DNA of 64,000 nucleotides from Octopus vulgaris. Lineage: Eukaryota. Location: positions 5,952,001-6,016,000 of the forward strand of contig OX597814.1 in the NCBI GenBank assembly GCA_951406725.2. The letters are read 5' to 3'. The notes under the pieces were generated by a model. The model had not been told where the DNA came from and did no database searches. It was given only the letters and a program-made list of their open reading frames with translations. The position numbers and the translations under genes are program-made. Positions 12,151 to 49,969 of the stretch are shown one piece after another. Each line of letters opens with the position of its first letter. Position 1 is the stretch's first letter.

Positions 12151-12315
12151 CTGGTTTGGTGACCCCAAACTGTACCTTTGATAGTGATCTGTGTGGATGG
12201 ACCCATGGCGAAATTAGTCCAAATGTGAAAAATAACACTTGGATCAGAGAAAATGAGGAAACCTTTACTTGGAAGACAGGACCTTCCAGGGATCATACGT
12301 ATGGAACATTTGAAG
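12151..12315 (+). CDS. Astacin-MAM gene A, MAM domain exon 1
   Basis: Acceptor gcAG (12149-12150), donor aag|GTGAG (12316). Encodes AGLVTPNCTFDSDLCGWTHGEISPNVKNNTWIRENEETFTWKTGPSRDHTYGTFE, containing the MAM motifs CxFdxxlCgW and TGPxxDHT. Phase 1 to 1. Confidence 0.95.
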
Positions 12316-13727: not shown

Positions 13728-13975
13728 GTTACTTCCTGTATTCCGAAGCTTCATTAAATGCTGGGTCTGTTGCGAAAATCAGGACGCCAACTCTAAAGGC
13801 AGGCGTTCACTGTTTGTCATTCTGGTACCACATGTATGGCCACAACATGGGCTCGCTTTCTGTCAACGAATTAGTGAAGGGCAAAACACTGACAAAACTG
13901 TTTACAAAATCTGGGAACCAAGGAAACAAATGGATCAATGGGAGAATCTCTTTTACTGCTACTGAGGACACAAAA
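13728..13975 (+). CDS. Astacin-MAM gene A, MAM domain exon 2
   Basis: Acceptor gctAG (13726-13727), donor aaa|GTAAGT (13976). Encodes GYFLYSEASLNAGSVAKIRTPTLKAGVHCLSFWYHMYGHNMGSLSV...SGNQGNKWINGRISFTATEDTK, with the MAM motifs CLxFwYhMyG and GNQGNxW. Phase 1 to 0. Confidence 0.95.
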
Positions 13976-14133
13976 GTAAGTTACTATTCCTCAAGTTACG
14001 TACATACACACACTCACACACATGTATACATATATACATGCATACATACGTATATACATATATGCATATATACATATATACATGCATACATACGTATATA
14101 CATACATGCATATATACATATATACATACATGC

Positions 14134-14166
<33 letters not shown>

Positions 14167-14245
14167 AGAAAAATAAATCTCATTATAAACAACATGGACC
14201 CATTTTCTTCTTAAGAAAAAATATATTTTCATATAAATTAAACAT

Positions 14246-14282
14246 TGTATCATGAATAGCGATTGCGAAACCGGTCGATACA
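14246..14282 (+). ncRNA. Minimal type I hammerhead ribozyme fold, A3:U8 core variant
   Basis: TGTATC-ATGAATA-GC(GATT)GC-GAAA-CCGG-TC-GATACA: 6-bp helix I, 2-bp helix II, palindromic helix III, GUC triplet. Confidence 0.7.
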
Positions 14283-14398
14283 TTAAAAATGATACTATAA
14301 CCATGTAAGTGTGCGTATTTTCTGTTTTTATTTTTCTTATATACATTACAATCCACCACGTGGGAACAACCGAAATTCCTCTTTTCTGTTACTACTAC

Positions 14399-14451
<53 letters not shown>

Positions 14452-14717
14452 GGTGCAGGAGTGGCTGTGTGGTAAGTAGCTTGCTTCCCAACCACATGGT
14501 TCCGGGTTCAGTCCCACTGCATGGCACCTTGGGCAAGTGTCTTCTACTATAGCCTGAGGCCGACCAAAGCCTTATGAGTGGATTTGGTAGACAAAAACTG
14601 TATGTGTGTGTATGTGTGTGTGTGAGTGAGTGTGTGTGTGTATGTGTGTGTGCACATTTGCATGCATGAGTATGTATGTATATATAAGCATAACATATAT
14701 ATATATATGTATATATT

Positions 14718-14753
<36 letters not shown>

Positions 14754-14958
14754 AATGTATGTATATTTTTTCAGTGAGTACAAATAACAAGGGAAAAACA
14801 AATAAATAGTTACCATGGTAGCAAAAATTGACATAAATGCCAAGGATATTACACCCTACTCATAAAGGCGGAAATTCCAGGGTAAAGTGAAATATTTTTC
14901 TATAACACGATTAATTAAGAAATGGAATCAAATGCAGGTGTTATTCAAATCATTTATA

Positions 14959-15047
14959 CTTACAACATATGTTTCAAAAAAAGCATTGATATTATTCCGG
15001 AAGGAATAAAAATGATGTAAAACAATGCAATCACCTCATCAGGGAAA
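14959..15047 (-). ncRNA. Type I hammerhead motif (family shared with 27496 and 53551), helix II decayed
   Basis: TTTCC-CTGATGA-ggtga...tttt-GAAA-CATATG-TT-GTAAG; lies about 180 nt from the PLE RT fragment. Confidence 0.55.
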
Positions 15048-15226
15048 AAAAACAAAATATATCAATAAGCCGTTTTAACCGAATGTGATTACTGCGTACG
15101 TAAGTGTATGATGTAAGAAGAACGCTAGGAAGTTATGTTTTAAAAAACCATTTATAGATTTAATGTCAAAGGTAATTTAGCGAAAGAGAAGGAGGAGAAA
15201 GAAAGAAATTAACAGAAAATTAAGAG

Positions 15227-15755
15227 TTGGAAAATATTAAATTTGAAAATAAGCTATGGGTCTGTAAATACACACCTAATAATTTTGATATTATGATGGG
15301 AAATTCTGGCTCAGCACAACTGGTTGATTTGGTATGTATATCCTTTATGAGATGGCTGACCAATTCCCAAACATCAGTGGATGTTTATATCGAGATGATT
15401 GTCTACTCTACCTTCAAAATGCTTCTAGCCAAAAATTAGAAAGGGTTACAAATAGCTTCGTTAAATTTTTCCAAATCATGGGCTTAAGCATTGTTTTTGA
15501 CGATGGTGTAACTAAAGCCAACTTTTTGGATATTTCCCTCAACTTATATAATGATTCATATTTCCCATACCACAAACCCTCAACTAATTTAAAATAGATT
15601 AACTCTTTCAGTAATCAACTGAAGACTCTTACAAGAATCTTAGAAATTTCCACTTTCTAGATTATCTCTAAATGTTGATATTTTTAACGATAAAGCCAAA
15701 TTTTATAACTGTGCTTTACTTAAAGCAGGCTATAAAGAAAAAAATTACATATATC
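15227..15755 (+). mobile_element. Penelope-like element RT fragment
   Basis: FDIMMGNSGSAQLVDLV / YILYEM...LYRDDCLL...NFLDISLNL...PYHKP matches the PLE RT pattern FDVTMGSxDGAEvcELVG...LYRDDGL...NFLDV. Confidence 0.85.
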
Positions 15756-16473
15756 GACCATATTGACATATCAGAAATATGGAAAGCGGACGTTATGTTC
15801 TAGCATGGGTTGGACGATTTTGACTGAGGGCTGGTAAACCAGATGGCTGCACCAGGCTCCAATCTTGATCTGGCAGAGTTTCTACAGCTGGATGCTCTTC
15901 CTAACGCCATATATATCATCATCATCATCATCATCATCATTGTTTAACGTCCACCTTCCATGCTAGCATGGGTGATATATATATATCATTCAACTATTAA
16001 CGGAGTCGAATAATATTGTTAAGGCCGTAATTTACTCACAAGCAGCATCTTCAGAACTTTGGTCGTTAATTCAGTTCTTAACCAAATTGAAAACTGTTAA
16101 CATTTTTGCAGAGGACTGGTCCCTAGCTAAATTTTGGCATAAAAAGAATTGAGATTTGGTCCAGTAGAAAAAAAGTTTACATCAAAATTTGTAGTAACAC
16201 CACCAATCAAGTTTAGATCTAAATAACTTTTAATTTAAAAGCAAAATATACTTATCTTAGCTTCAATGACAGAAGAAAGCATGAAGAATTTCATAGTTTT
16301 GGTCCCATGCAACAAAAATTTATATCAAAAATGTTGTGACATAAAATATGAAAAAATATTGGGTTTAAGTAGCGGAATGTGACTGGGCTAAAATGTTTTG
16401 CTAACCCAACACCCTCACCTGAAACTCAAAATGTTTGGTTGCTTATTAAATTCTTTAATTTATTTCTCCACAG

Positions 16474-16554
16474 ATTGAATTTGAAAGCACCGTTGGTTCA
16501 GTGCAGAGTGACATTGCTATCGATGATGTGATGGTGCTTGATGCGAAATGCTGA
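16474..16554 (+). CDS. Astacin-MAM gene A, terminal coding exon
   Basis: Acceptor ctccacAG (16472-16473). Encodes IEFESTVGSVQSDIAIDDVMVLDAKC then TGA (16552-16554), the MAM C-terminal DIAIDD...C motif. Phase 0 matches. Confidence 0.95.
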   Translation: MEFESTVGSVQSDIAIDDVMVLDAKC

Positions 16555-18194: not shown

Positions 18195-20944
18195 TGAGCT
18201 CACCATGGAATGTTCATAGTCTGTTTCATTTGAATTGGGGTTCATGCATACTGTCTCTATTTCTCTTTCCAATCTTCTTGACAGAATGTCGTTCCTCTGT
18301 TCTCTTTCAAACATTTAATTTTGGAGAGTGTAGCACCATTGCTTTTCAGAACTTTGGGTCATCTCTTGACCATTTGTAAAACAGAAAGATTTTGTGCTTT
18401 CCTTCACCATACATTTCTAGATAATTTCTCAGTGGAATCTTGCACAATTCCTCTTGTCGGATCTGTTGTCTATGGATTCTTGCACACAGGTTGTGGGAAT
18501 TGTTTGTTTCATTCTTGAATTTTATGTGGAAACCACTTTCTAAATACTTGAAGTTGTTGTCGTTGCATGTTCCACGTCTGTTATCTTCACATTCTTTTAT
18601 GGAAAATTCTGATTCATTCTCTGATGTGAATTTTGCTCTTGTGTGGTGTATTTTGAGATTTTTTGGTTGGCATCTACTGTTTCATAAGGGGGTTTTATTA
18701 ATCAGATTTTTCATTTTGGGGCTTTTTGGAATATAGGTAGGTTTGATTTTATTGTGTGAAAGATTTTGGCCCTTCAGGATTGTGCATATTGATAAATGGA
18801 ATCGTGTGTTCATTACTTTTTTCCTTTGATGTCCTTGGTTGTGTGGTGTTCAGCTTCTTTACCTTTTTGATTCCATCATTTATTAATTCTAAGGGGCATT
18901 TCTGTTTTGTTAGGAAACCCTTGAGTTTGTTGAGTCAGATTTGGTGTATTTTGGGGTCAATCAGTGCAGATACATCTTGCCATGGGATATTCCTTTTGAT
19001 GTGTGAGGGATTGCAAGAGTAGAAATTCAAATATTGGTGTGTGTTGGTTTTCTTGTAAAATATGTCTGTTGTGACTGTGGAGTGTGTGTATTTTTACGTG
19101 GATATTCATTGCACCTGGATTCTATTGTGAATTTGATGGATGGGTGAATTGTGTTGAGTATATTATTAAATATTTGTAGGTCCTCGTCTGATTTTGCTCC
19201 AAAAGGTGAAGCAGTCATCCAGGAAGCATTTCTTGCAATCATGAGTAAAAGCTCTCTTCCAAGTATCTCATGACTAGGTTAGCATATGATGGTGCAAACC
19301 GCATCCCCATGGCCATGCCCTTTATCTGTCGATGTGTTTTATTATCGAATCTAACAGTGTTTTCTTGTAGTATTAGGTGTGTGGCCTTAGTGATGAAGTC
19401 AGTTTTGAAGCATTCCTTTATCCGTCCTCTATGTTTCTCTGCCCAGTGTTTGACTGCTTCCAGGATCAAAGTGTGAGGTATATTGGTATAAAGATTGGTG
19501 ACATCAAAACTTGTTTGGTACCTTCTGGGACAGTAAGTGGAATGTGCTGGAGGAATTCTATACCATCCTATACATAGCTGGGTTTTAATGGGCATAAAGC
19601 TTTTAGGATTATATCCAAAAGATGACTCAGTTTGATGTCTGTAGGTCTTAGTATTTTTATGTATTAGCCCCTCTGTTCATTTATAGATCTCCGTATTTTG
19701 GAGCTTTTGCAGATTTTGAGGGAATCCGTAGAAATTGCTCTCTTTGATTACAGAGTTCCTTATATAATCTTTCCCCTTGTCTGTAAAGGAATCTTGGAAT
19801 TCATTGATTAGTTTTCTGATTTTATTCATTATTCTTTTTCCTGAGTGTCTTGGTTCTTCCTTGCTGTAGGTTTGCTTTGTTAACATTCCCAATATTTTAT
19901 CTTTATAACAGTCCTTGTCCATGATTACTATCCCCCCCCCATATCGACTTCTTTTAGGATGATTGAATTGTCGTTCTTCAGTGTTAGTAAGGCTTCCTTT
20001 CCTTCTTCATGAAGGTTTTATTTGCATTTATGGGAACTAAGGGGAAATTTCAAAATTGTGTCTGTATAAGCATCTAAATGGTTATCATTCCCCTTGTTAT
20101 CATTCCCCATTCTAAATGGTTATCATTCCCAAAAGGCAGTGAGCTGGTAGAAATGTTAGCATGCCGGGCGAAATGCTTAGTGGTATTGCGTCTGCGTTAC
20201 ATTCTGAGTTCAAATCCTGCCAAGGTCGACTTTGCCTTTCATCCTTTCGGGGTCGATTAAATAAGTACCAGTTATGCACTGGGGTCGTTGTAATCGACTT
20301 AATACCTATGTCTCTCCTTGTTTGTCCCCTCTGTGTTTAGCCCCTTTGTGGGTAATAAAGAAATAGGTTATCATTCCCCTTGTAGGGGGTGAAATGGGAT
20401 TTATTTCTGATAATTGATTCATTATTTATATCCTTATTGCTGAAGAATTCTATAAGTGAGAGGTAGCAGTTAAAATGTTCAATATCAGCTTTGAGTTCAA
20501 TGAGATTTGGGTTGGGAGTCAGAGTAAATTTGAAACCTTTCAATAGGAGATTCATCTTTTTCTTGTTGAGGTTTCTTTTTGACAAATCTTTGATCTTTCG
20601 GCCTATATGTTCTGTGTGTGTCGGGTCCGGTGTGTGATTGTGGGATTTTCTCCCTAAAAAACGAATTGCTTCTCTGTTTTACCATTTTTTGTTTCCTGGA
20701 TTCTTGTGAGGGGATGGTTTATGTTCTTTGTATTTCATTGTCTATACATTTTGTTTTCTTCCCATCTTCTATGTTCATTGGGCCATTCAGGATGTCTGGG
20801 ATTGTTGGTTGTAAATCATGGCTTTCTTGAGTTTCCATGACGATTCTTCATATTATGGTTTCTGTGTTGTCTACATTTTACTTGTCTTTCTTTCCATGTA
20901 TTCATCCATCTGGGTTATTTGGCATTATGGGTTGATGGTTGTCT

Positions 20945-34470: not shown

Positions 34471-34658
34471 ATGTATGTATGTATCTTCTATCAAACTATC
34501 AAAGTATCAATATATATATATATATATGTACTCGCATAGCAAGTAATTTGATCTGAGATCGTGTGCTGAAACGAAAACAATTGCAGCGTGGAAGGTGTTT
34601 GTAAGCCATTTAAGAAACACACAAAAGCCGTTCGATTCACTTCAACATTTAAGTTTAA

Positions 34659-34708
34659 TTTGTCAAAATATTTTCGTCGCTAAAATCCGCGACCTGTTCA
34701 CTGATAAA
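34659..34708 (-). ncRNA. Hammerhead fold, G3:C8 variant (left-arm copy)
   Basis: Reverse complement of 34723-34772 with one mismatch in helix I. Confidence 0.6.
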
Positions 34709-34722
34709 AATGCAGCACGGAC

Positions 34723-34772
34723 TTTGTCAGTGAACAGGTCGCGGATTTTAGCGACGAAAATATTTTGACAAA
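34723..34772 (+). ncRNA. Hammerhead fold, G3:C8 core variant
   Basis: TTTGTCA-GTGAACA-G-GTCGC(GGATTTTA)GCGAC-GAAA-ATAT-TT-TGACAAA: 7-bp helix I, 5-bp helix II, palindromic helix III. Confidence 0.65.
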
Positions 34773-37003
34773 TTAAACTTAAATGTTGAAGTGAATCGAA
34801 CGGCTTTTGTGTGTTTCTTAAATGGCTTATAAACACCTTCCACGCTGCAATTGTCATATATATATATATATATATATATATAAGCATGTACACACAGATA
34901 TACACATATATAAGATGTACTTATGTGTGGGTGTATGCATGTGTGTACGCCCGTTATCATTTGGTTAGGAGAATTCCCCCCTCCCCTGTCAACTCGATGC
35001 TTTGATAACCTCATTACCCTCCATGGTTTGTTGTTCTGTTGCATTCAAACAGTTATGTCAACAGCCATGTGACTCAAATATGCATGACACACATCAGAGT
35101 CAGGACAGAGGAATGGAAGAGGAGATGGAAGGAATTTGGGTTAGATTCTGGGTGGAGTCAGTCAGAATCTAATCTGCCCTGAAGACAAATAAATGTATGA
35201 AGAAACTTCTAAAGAAGTTTGCTGCTTGCAATGGTTTGGTTTCAGGTTCAATTCTGCATTGTGGTTATGTGAGAAAGTATTGCCTTCTGTAACTTTGAGC
35301 TGACCAATGCCTTCTGTGAGGAAACAACAACCTATAGGAGGGGCCACTGAATGCCACAGTGTAGGGATTGAAACTTAAATATGTATATATATGTATATTC
35401 TCCCCCTTTCCAATCCTGGTGTGCTTCAGTTTATACCCCACCCCGTAACTTGGGTGTACGGTCCCTACCCTCTGCCTGTCATATCTTCACCATCTTTCTG
35501 ACCCCACTTTTTCTGAGGTAACTACATCTCTCTTCTAATGCAGGACAACTTTCTGTCCCTCAGTACTTCTCCCCACCCAGCAGACAGGTCTTGTCTTCCA
35601 AGTCATTTGGTGACCCCACTGATGCCAGTGCCATGTAAAAAGCACTCAGTACACTCTGTAAAGGGTTTGGCATATTAGGAAGGGCGTCCAACCAGAGAAA
35701 CCATACCAAACCACACAGCAGAACTTGATGCAGCATTCTGACTTGTCAGTTCCTGTCAAACCATCCTATTTGTGCCAGCAAGTTTGAGTTAGACAAGAGG
35801 AAGACAAGACGCTAGAAAGTGCAGTACCCAAAATGTTATCAATGAGAATAGAAGAAATAATCTGGAACATAGGCGAAATAAGTTAGAGATTAACCTTAAT
35901 GAAACCAACATAGAAAATAATAATGTGTTTTCCATGCTGGCTTGAGTTGGACATCTTGACAGAAGCTGGCAAGGCCAGGTGTCCACACCAGGTGCCCACA
36001 CCAGGTGAACATAGACTGTATTAGTTTGGTTTCTTCAGCCAGATGCTCTTCCTAACACCAAACCCTTTGTAGAGTATACTTCTTATGTGGAACCATCAAC
36101 AATGCCTTTTTTTAAACTTGGAACAGTCACCAGTGCTTTTTACATGGCATCAGCATCAATACATTTTATGTGGATCCAGCACTGACATGAAAGCTTTTAT
36201 ACATGGCACCTCACATATATATGAGCTGGAAAGAAACGTTAGCACGCCGGGCAAAATGCGTAGCCGTATTTCGTCTGCCGTTACGTTCTGAGTTCAAATT
36301 CCGCCGAGGTAGACTTTGCCTTTCATCCTCTCAGGTTCGATAAATTAAGTACCTGTTACGCACTGGGGTCGATGTAATCAATTTTATCCCTTTGTCTGTC
36401 CTTGTTTGTCCCCTCTGTTTAGCCCCTTGTGGGCAATAAAGAAATATATATATATATATATATACTCTTTACTCTTTTACTTGTTTCAGTCATTTGACTG
36501 CGGCCATGCTGGAGCACCGCCTTTAGTCGAGCAAATCGACCCCGGAAGTTATTCTTTGTAAGCCCAGTACTTATTCTATCAGTCTCTTTTGCTGAACCGC
36601 TAAGTGACGGGGACGTAAACACACCAGCATCATAGGGGGACAAACACAGACACACAAACATATACACACACACTTATATATATATACATATATACGACAG
36701 GCTTCTTTCAGTTTCCATCTACCAATTACACTCACAAGGCATTGGTCAGCCCAGGGCTATAGCAGAAGACACTTGCCCAAGATGCCACGCAGTGGGACTG
36801 AACCCGGAACCATGTGGTTGGTTAGCAAGCTACTTACCACACAGCCACTCCTGCGCCTATATATATATATATATATAATTTATAAAAATATGGTAAAGTA
36901 AAAGAATTCACTTTACCACACACCGAACTTTTCAGAAATAGCAGCCAAAAACTTGGCTATTTTTATATTGTTATGAGAAAATGGGGGTCGAATCAATTAA
37001 TTA

Positions 37004-49642: not shown

Positions 49643-49969
49643 TCACTGCCTGGAATCGAACTCAGAATCTTGGAGTTAGTAGCCTGCGCTCTTAACCACT
49701 TTGCCATATGCCTGTGCATATAGGGCATATGGCATAGTGGTAAAGAGCACAGGCTATTAACCCCAAGATTCCGAGTTCGATTCCAGGCAGTGACCTGAAT
49801 AATAATAATAATAATAATAACATCGAAAAATACCTTAGGAATGAGAACCCACATTTGAAATTCCCCCAAGACACCTGATGAAGGATGGAGGGTATATCAG
49901 CCGAAATGTTGTGTTAACAACAAACAAGATGAGAACAAATATCCATCAAATGTAAATAATGTAAATAAT
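49637..49969 (+). mobile_element. tRNA-headed element with inverted duplication of its head and an internal hammerhead-like motif
   Basis: Head gggcatatggcatagtggtaaagagc...gagttcgattcc (49723-49799) has an inverted copy at 49637-49712. The body carries GACAC-CTGATGA..GAAA..GTGTT and ends in (gtaaataat)2. Other body fragments near 41830-41920 (-) and 42560-42612. Confidence 0.7.
49870..49915 (+). ncRNA. Minimal hammerhead-like motif inside the tRNA-headed element
   Basis: GACAC-CTGATGA-a-GGATG(gagggtatat)CAGCC-GAAA-TG-TT-GTGTT; one helix II mismatch. Helix III ATGT may be a CpG-decayed ACGT (inference). Confidence 0.55.

Follow-up and report, generated by a model that had tools for sequence, protein, structure and literature searches.

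A hammerhead motif family with an A3:U8 core pair in an octopus Penelope-like retroelement

This locus raises the question of whether a hammerhead motif whose core differs from the standard one at positions 3 and 8, two residues that still complement each other, has decayed or has had its core pair kept by selection. The textbook hammerhead core is C3 U4 G5 A6 N7 G8 A9. In the window (the whole 64-kb stretch of DNA that was analysed), the 37 nt at 14246-14282 read TGTATC ATGAATA GC GATT GC GAAA CCGG TC GATACA. The features of the motif are listed below.

14246..14282, + strand: type I hammerhead motif with an A3:U8 core (sequence; 844 genomic matches, control 0)
14246..14251, + strand: helix I, 5' strand TGTATC, pairing with 14277-14282; compensatory A-U/G-C changes at two pairs between subfamilies
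14252..14258, + strand: core ATGAATA, that is A3 U4 G5 A6 A7 U8 A9, with A3 at 14252 and U8 at 14257
14259..14266, + strand: helix II of 2 bp, GC (14259-14260) with GC (14265-14266); G10.1-C11.1 kept; variable 4-nt loop GATT
14267-14276, + strand: GAAA (14267-14270), CCGG (14271-14274), U16.1 (14275) and C17 (14276), from the sequence
14270-14275, + strand: self-complementary ACCGGU, which would form an intermolecular helix III (sequence, folding energies)
14276/14277, + strand: predicted cut, after C17 (hammerhead numbering)
14277..14282, + strand: helix I, 3' strand GATACA (sequence, alignment)

Motif anatomy and insertion site

Every element of the motif in the preliminary description of this DNA, as well as its coordinates, was confirmed on the sequence. 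The topology was that of a type I hammerhead, with helix I open and helix II closed by G10.1-C11.1, and 85% of cells were paired. U4 G5 A6, A9, G12 A13 A14, A15.1-U16.1 and H17 were conserved at 91-100% in 34 segments picked by protein homology. The C3 and G8 that a type I hammerhead literally calls for were replaced by A3 and U8, and Watson-Crick complementarity of positions 3 and 8 was present in the motif family. The description had taken it as established that these positions pair in the active fold, which agrees with the pairing of residues 3 and 8 in the catalytically active conformation (PMC3884650).

A search with Rfam gave no hammerhead match in the window at the gathering score, nor locally at E up to 10. 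In constrained folding helix I was not extended, and loop II was variable between copies. The outer two pairs of helix I were broken in 37/51 and 25/51 distinct aligned rows and the inner 4 bp were generally paired. As judged from this alignment, the 6-bp helix I is a trait of a subfamily and not of the whole family.

The proposed position on the sense strand in the last intron of gene A also held: gene A is a MAM-domain gene whose last coding intron (13976-16473) contains the motif. The insertion and the neighbouring exons comprise the following features.

13728..13975, + strand: penultimate coding exon of host gene A, MAM domain (Pfam MAM E = 9.6e-15)
14158..14177, - strand: short inverted copy of the 3' part of the element, matching 14327-14346; 20 nt, 95% complementary
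14176..14398, + strand: 3' end of a Penelope-like retroelement (PLE), truncated at 5' and comprising pseudo-LTR and tail, ~220 nt, 94-99% identical to 29 other fetched copies
14289..14298, + strand: competing helix with 14244-14253, made by a private G at 14291 (folding)
14402..14451, no strand: (TA)n microsatellite at the 3' junction
16474..16554, + strand: last coding exon of host gene A, with the MAM end and stop (spliced translation)

In translation, the exon ending at 12315 and those at 13728-13975 and 16474-16554 splice into one MAM domain. The sequence of 14176-14398 was also found after RT + GIY-YIG ORFs in other loci (L080, L124 and others). The window copy carried no ORF, and tblastn gave no match near it. 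Inverted truncated copies are a known feature of PLE insertion (PMC8557442), and a TA-rich repeat was present 5' of the copy as well (13997-14166). Position 14291 is G in the window copy versus T in 27/27 pattern-matching close copies. In folding, the helix created by this G would capture the 5' strand of helix I together with A3 and U4. No second hammerhead of the main family, the one to which the motif belongs, was found in the 64-kb window, and no sign of host use of the copy was seen. Solitary and truncated, with a competing helix private to it and no other hammerhead of its family in the window, the copy is probably inert and probably does nothing for the MAM-domain gene.

Other strings in the window were also recorded. 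A stretch at ~14775-15760, in the same intron, looked by eye like a degraded retroelement and gave no tblastn match with the L124 protein. Hammerhead-like strings with a CUGANGA core were present at 49875 (+) and 45202 (-); one has no complete palindrome, and the other a long helix II. A decayed RT at 18716-19955 (-) belonged to a more distant PLE-type family, with 29-31% identity to L124 (E = 6.6e-40).

Carrier element and family consensus

The identity of the carrier had been missed in the preliminary description. By its sequence context, the motif sits in the 3' pseudo-LTR of a PLE encoding RT and GIY-YIG, and its intronic position is that of an ordinary insertion. In main-family loci (L080, L124 and others), the motif was ~250-350 nt downstream of the end of the RT + GIY-YIG ORF. 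The 635-aa frame of L124, which has the length of the longest open frame among the scored matches of the main family, gave RVT_1 at E = 1.1e-6 (28.9 bits, just below the cut-off of 29.6) and GIY-YIG at E = 1.6e-6. Its linker KCGRPNCGTC is of the CX2-5CxxC type, which suggests, from sequence, a Neptune-type element; Nematis has the same linker motif. Likened by features alone, the family resembles the Neptune-type PLEs of PMC8557442 in its C-terminal GIY-YIG, the CX2-5CxxC-type linker and insertion beside microsatellites. Inverted truncated copies (as in L080), an optional tail and (TA)n neighbours accompanied the family loci; the tail was present in 23/33 motif matches, and (TA)n followed 32/33 motif matches in L140-L169. 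The long copies L124, L125 and L138 were all 5'-truncated.

The motif is of the same kind as the hammerheads in metazoan PLE pseudo-LTRs reported by Cervera and De la Pena in 2014 (PMC4209133), which are type I and lie 3' of an RT + GIY-YIG ORF. Shared features are a short palindromic helix III implying dimers, the kept G10.1-C11.1 pair, AU-rich flanks and the occurrence of mostly single truncated copies together with inverted pairs. The octopus motif differs in its helix II of only 2 bp, the lack of an extra nucleotide after A9 and CCGG as loop III; its core is A3:U8, whereas C3:G8 and U3:A8 are those of PMC4209133.

We also considered whether the copy was a non-LTR retrozyme, in which non-coding hammerhead units are in tandem. 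This candidate was rejected; the window held a single copy, and the family was dispersed and not tandem among the first 100 matches listed. No same-strand pair within 5 kb was among those 100 matches, and one was seen in L029. Non-LTR retrozymes (bioRxiv 10.64898/2026.07.22.740005) have a similar type I hammerhead related to those of PLE pseudo-LTRs, but they form tandem arrays, unlike the dispersed and ORF-linked octopus family. Retrozyme-like tandem arrays were found at other loci (L170-L176, L184-L187), with ~359-bp spacing and one canonical C3:G8 hammerhead per unit.

The family consensus was obtained with a pattern in which positions 3, 7 and 8 and loop II were left free, searched in the octopus genome itself (2.8 Gb) with the reversed pattern as control. 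There were 844 exact matches versus 0 for the control, and thus the motif is not a product of chance. A3 was combined with another base at position 8 in 28 matches (7 A, 11 C, 10 G), and 29 had a base other than A at position 3 (6 C3:U8, 10 G3:U8, 7 U3:U8, 5 U3:A8, 1 U3:C8). These 57 were scattered singles or members of other families, and the flanks of the five U3:A8 matches were unlike those of the main family. All other matches, 787/844, were A3:U8, and C3:G8 was found in 0/844. Among the segments chosen by protein homology alone, A3 was present in 33/34 (one gap) and U8 in 34/34. A relaxed A3:U8 pattern gave 1,496 genomic matches (control 48). In contigs from four public runs under four organism labels, no other letter exceeded the 5% threshold at position 3; C was at position 8 in one contig, and A3 and U8 were otherwise kept.

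A3:U8 is the consensus of the main PLE family. The preliminary description had left open whether AUGAAUA was the family consensus or a singleton double mutant in a CUGAAGA family; the counts in both sets settle this in favour of the former and exclude the latter.

Variation and history of the 3:8 pair

High copy number alone indicates one successful master, hence the comparison was made between lineages. Between the majority lines of the two most distant subfamilies, S1 and S3, the older of which was represented by 8 copies, 0/20 constrained motif positions differed versus 24/100 flank positions (Fisher p = 0.012). Two comparisons of closer subfamilies did not reach significance (p = 0.07 and 0.13). 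The variable parts of the motif were those in which a hammerhead tolerates change, namely N7, loop II and helix I, the last by compensation: A-U was present in 28 and G-C in 20 at one pair, and in 18 and 7 at another. The covariation score of helix I was 0.227 versus 0.106 for shuffled alignments, in an alignment where 6/58 rows came from other families and related rows inflate the score.

The sampled sister PLE families carried U3:A8, as did 20/20 copies in one further family. A second PLE family with A3:U8 had an endonuclease ~59% identical to that of the main family and flanks that could not be aligned with it. Its helix I was different, its helix II was GU(A)/(U)AC instead of GC/GC, and its triplet was GUA. 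When its copies were found or picked by position 8 alone, those with C8 had G3 in 9/12, A3 in 2 and U3 in 1, and those with U8, picked in the same way, had A3 in 18/18. This split between G3:C8 and A3:U8 gave a Fisher p = 1.5e-5, with copies that represent few events. Two subfamilies of the second family, with L251 and L262 as an example pair, had motifs identical except at 3 and 8, and both forms were present in contigs under other organism labels.

A G3:C8 pattern gave 151 genomic matches (control 13) and a C3:G8 pattern 451 (control 70). All four Watson-Crick pairs were found at 3:8 in the octopus genome, and a mismatched 3:8 consensus was found in none of the amplified families examined. 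These patterns suggest that 3:8 pairing is likely selected at the level of element lineages; the copies are not independent events, and a handful of changes between lineages underlie the covariation.

In a quick tree, the main A3:U8 family formed one side of a branch among U3:A8 families (SH-aLRT 95); its labels were assigned by family, so that the A3U8 label includes a few point mutants. A DNA tree of the second family, with positions 3 and 8 masked and a midpoint root, had G3:C8 on its two deeper branches, apart from a single G3:U8 row there; the 13 A3:U8 rows all fell in the youngest group, among 8 G3:C8 rows. The two A3:U8 families were not joined on the tree, which implied 2 changes, and a single clade was not rejected (p-AU 0.128, 140 columns). 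All these trees had midpoint roots and held no C3:G8 PLE. They suggest that A3:U8 was probably not a one-step change from C3:G8. With polarity taken from the midpoint root, A3:U8 in the second family likely arose from G3:C8 through two transitions, and in the main family it likely arose from a U3:A8 background.

The preliminary description had seen compensation rather than decay in this core. That much stands, since the motif is neither a singleton nor decayed and positions 3 and 8 covary between lineages. Its further idea of two changes from the textbook C3:G8 does not fit the lack of C3:G8 among the 844 matches, the U3:A8 of the sister families and the nesting of A3:U8 among G3:C8 in the second family.

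A literature search, which covered the first 20 listed papers where more matched and left several key papers outside, gave no published report of a natural A3:U8 hammerhead; a large survey of PLE-associated hammerhead variants is said to be that of Lunse et al. (RNA Biol 14:1499). A3:U8 was absent from the readable representatives in Figure S3 of PMC4209133 (most of 56, in machine-read text), and no mention of it was found in the accessible parts of PMC2920678, PMC6155905, PMC6765202, PMC8495972 and PMC8370743. Natural U3:A8 core variants have been published (Perreault et al. 2011, PMC3088659; PMC4209133), and in vitro tolerance of other 3:8 pairs is likewise already in print. The octopus core resembles the U3:A8 of PMC3088659 as a natural compensatory change of the 3:8 pair, but its order is purine at 3, pyrimidine at 8 (as A:U here and as G:C in sister families), and it is a family consensus, present in 787 copies or more.

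Further families with other core pairs were observed. Intact ORFs of 781 aa and of 753 aa were numerous and nearly identical, with U3:A8 hammerheads wherever the motif was found; by their sequences, the two ORF groups are two recently active PLE families. Young sister PLEs had U3:A8 and an extra purine after GAAA (GAAAACCGGUU or GAAAGCCGGUU), in L120-L123 and L127 (753-aa ORF) and in L129, L130 and L132. The latter group also had an extra C before the core, and the helix III register and N17 are ambiguous in these U3:A8 sisters. A small family with common 5' flanks carried A3:U8 in L215 (both copies), U3:U8 in L033 and U3:A8 in L042, and these few copies may possibly represent a lineage caught at the flip.

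The window itself contained an inverted pair of G3:C8 hammerheads, with position 3 at 34701 (-) and 34730 (+), within ~34540-34856. This pair had the core GTGAACA, helix II GTCGC/GCGAC, GAAA, an ATAT palindrome and UU. Its mostly-G3:C8 family gave 5,956 pattern matches (control 0), 16/20 examined being G3:C8, and no ORF similarity was found in 20 of its loci. G8 was present in 5 of the first 100 matches listed (L296, L316-L319); all five were mismatched (G:G twice, A:G twice, U:G once) and none was C3:G8. They are possibly a small decayed subfamily, and they count against the view of a kept 3:8 pair.

Cleavage and rival readings

We consider it probable that the hammerhead of this PLE family, A3:U8 throughout, still cleaves the element RNA behind C17, although weakly, and that it probably needs dimerisation or the element's own protein to do so. 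Przybilski and Hammann reportedly found in 2007 that two type III ribozymes were active with every Watson-Crick pair and that the preferred pair depended on context, and Perreault et al. cite that work for the activity of covarying pairs (PMC3088659). Activity requires the 2'-OH of residue 8 and is partly restored by the C3G/G8C swap (PMC8495972). Where helix III is a short palindrome, PLE hammerheads show weak cleavage in dimeric form (PMC4209133). The hammerhead of the Anolis Poseidon PLE also relies on the 3:8 pair, with single mutants dead and the C3G/G8C double mutant partly rescued, and cleaves in vitro only with the element's protein; it differs from the octopus motif in its canonical C3:G8 and in overlapping the ORF start (PMC11167929).

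The sequence, the consensus, the linkage to RT + GIY-YIG and the 3:8 covariation were observed, and the chemistry that we infer would be as follows. Catalysis would need the 2'-OH of residue 8 to be held by pairing with residue 3 and would not need a particular base there. Lineages could then pass among C:G, U:A, G:C and A:U, with selection on the retrotransposing RNA purging unpaired states. In a tandem transcript, the ACCGGU palindromes of two hammerheads would pair to make helix III, and the dimerised motifs would cut after C17 and thereby trim or circularise the element RNA.

Folding energies were +1.1 kcal/mol for the monomer hammerhead fold and -9.7 kcal/mol for the palindrome duplex. 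The lowest-energy dimer of the 37-mer (-20.6 kcal/mol) was not a hammerhead, and a partial hammerhead dimer was at -14.6 kcal/mol. Single-strand folding showed no gain over shuffles (z about 0 to -1). The public runs that hold the sequence were all contig sets, and none of those listed was recorded as RNA. A contig end at 14277 in one run was rejected as a trace of cleavage, because 31-mer unitigs break there anyway owing to common variants at 14246-14247.

The fold, including its 3:8 pair, might alternatively be kept as a binding or packaging structure for the PLE protein, with cleavage negligible or irrelevant. This would account for the anole system, where PLE insertion in vitro proceeded unimpaired with mutated hammerheads and RNA-seq showed no read ends at the cut (PMC11167929). 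It would also suit a scan of all double mutants in one type III hammerhead, where the G:C swap alone rescued, A:U did not and every other double in that region had low activity (PMC9901934). The unimpaired insertion and the scan also weigh against cleavage by the octopus motif. Genomic copy ends did not pile up at the cut in the octopus; only 2 matches lacked the UC before it and neither started there, one being an inversion junction that starts upstream of the cut and the other a point mutant; this is a weak test, as no full-length copy was found. However, the 3:8 pair belongs to the catalytically active conformation (PMC3884650), the NUH triplet was kept (UC, UA and UU in the families seen), and an element that serves for binding only would have no obvious reason to keep both. 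We therefore regard a purely structural role as unlikely.

Amplification of a master with a dead ribozyme, its A3 and U8 complementary by chance in an AT-rich lineage, seems improbable. A single master would by itself give the high copy number, AT-rich sequence favours A and U, and the longest frame of the main family is 635 aa versus the many 753-aa and 781-aa frames of the U3:A8 families. Such an accident would not explain a core unchanged across subfamilies with 13-24% flank difference, the recurrence of A3:U8 beside G3:C8 in a second family, or a Watson-Crick 3:8 pair in every amplified family examined, and the G3:C8/A3:U8 covariation largely refutes it. We give hardly any credence to co-option by the host, in which the window copy would cleave within the last intron of the MAM-domain pre-mRNA and tune expression. 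The sense orientation, the intact 37-nt motif and the full 6-bp helix I would suit this role, but the copy is 94-99% identical to many unselected copies, the window holds no partner for it from the same family, its monomer fold is unstable, and its private change makes a competing helix.

Weak cutting after C17 by the A3:U8 motif thus remains the preferred explanation. The evolutionary evidence points to selection in PLE ribozymes that keeps the 3:8 base pair and not the identity of C3 or G8. This evidence bears on the question of whether spread of the element depends on cleavage by the PLE hammerhead, whose activity in vitro is weak and whose mutation left insertion unaffected in one in vitro system. 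More tentatively, one animal PLE clade could have flipped the 3:8 pair repeatedly through all four Watson-Crick forms, cleaving with purine-3/pyrimidine-8 cores that are poor in some free ribozymes, with the active fold stabilised by dimerisation or by the element's protein. If this is true, CUGANGA descriptors and Rfam would miss functional hammerheads by the thousand in each genome, and the octopus genome would offer a natural series of C:G, U:A, G:C and A:U for probing the role of the ribozyme in PLEs. The two natural subfamilies whose motifs differ only at 3 and 8 provide a clean test. Standard searches undercount such ribozymes, as seen in the matches to the relaxed A3:U8 pattern (1,496; control 48) and to that of the mostly-G3:C8 family (5,956; control 0).
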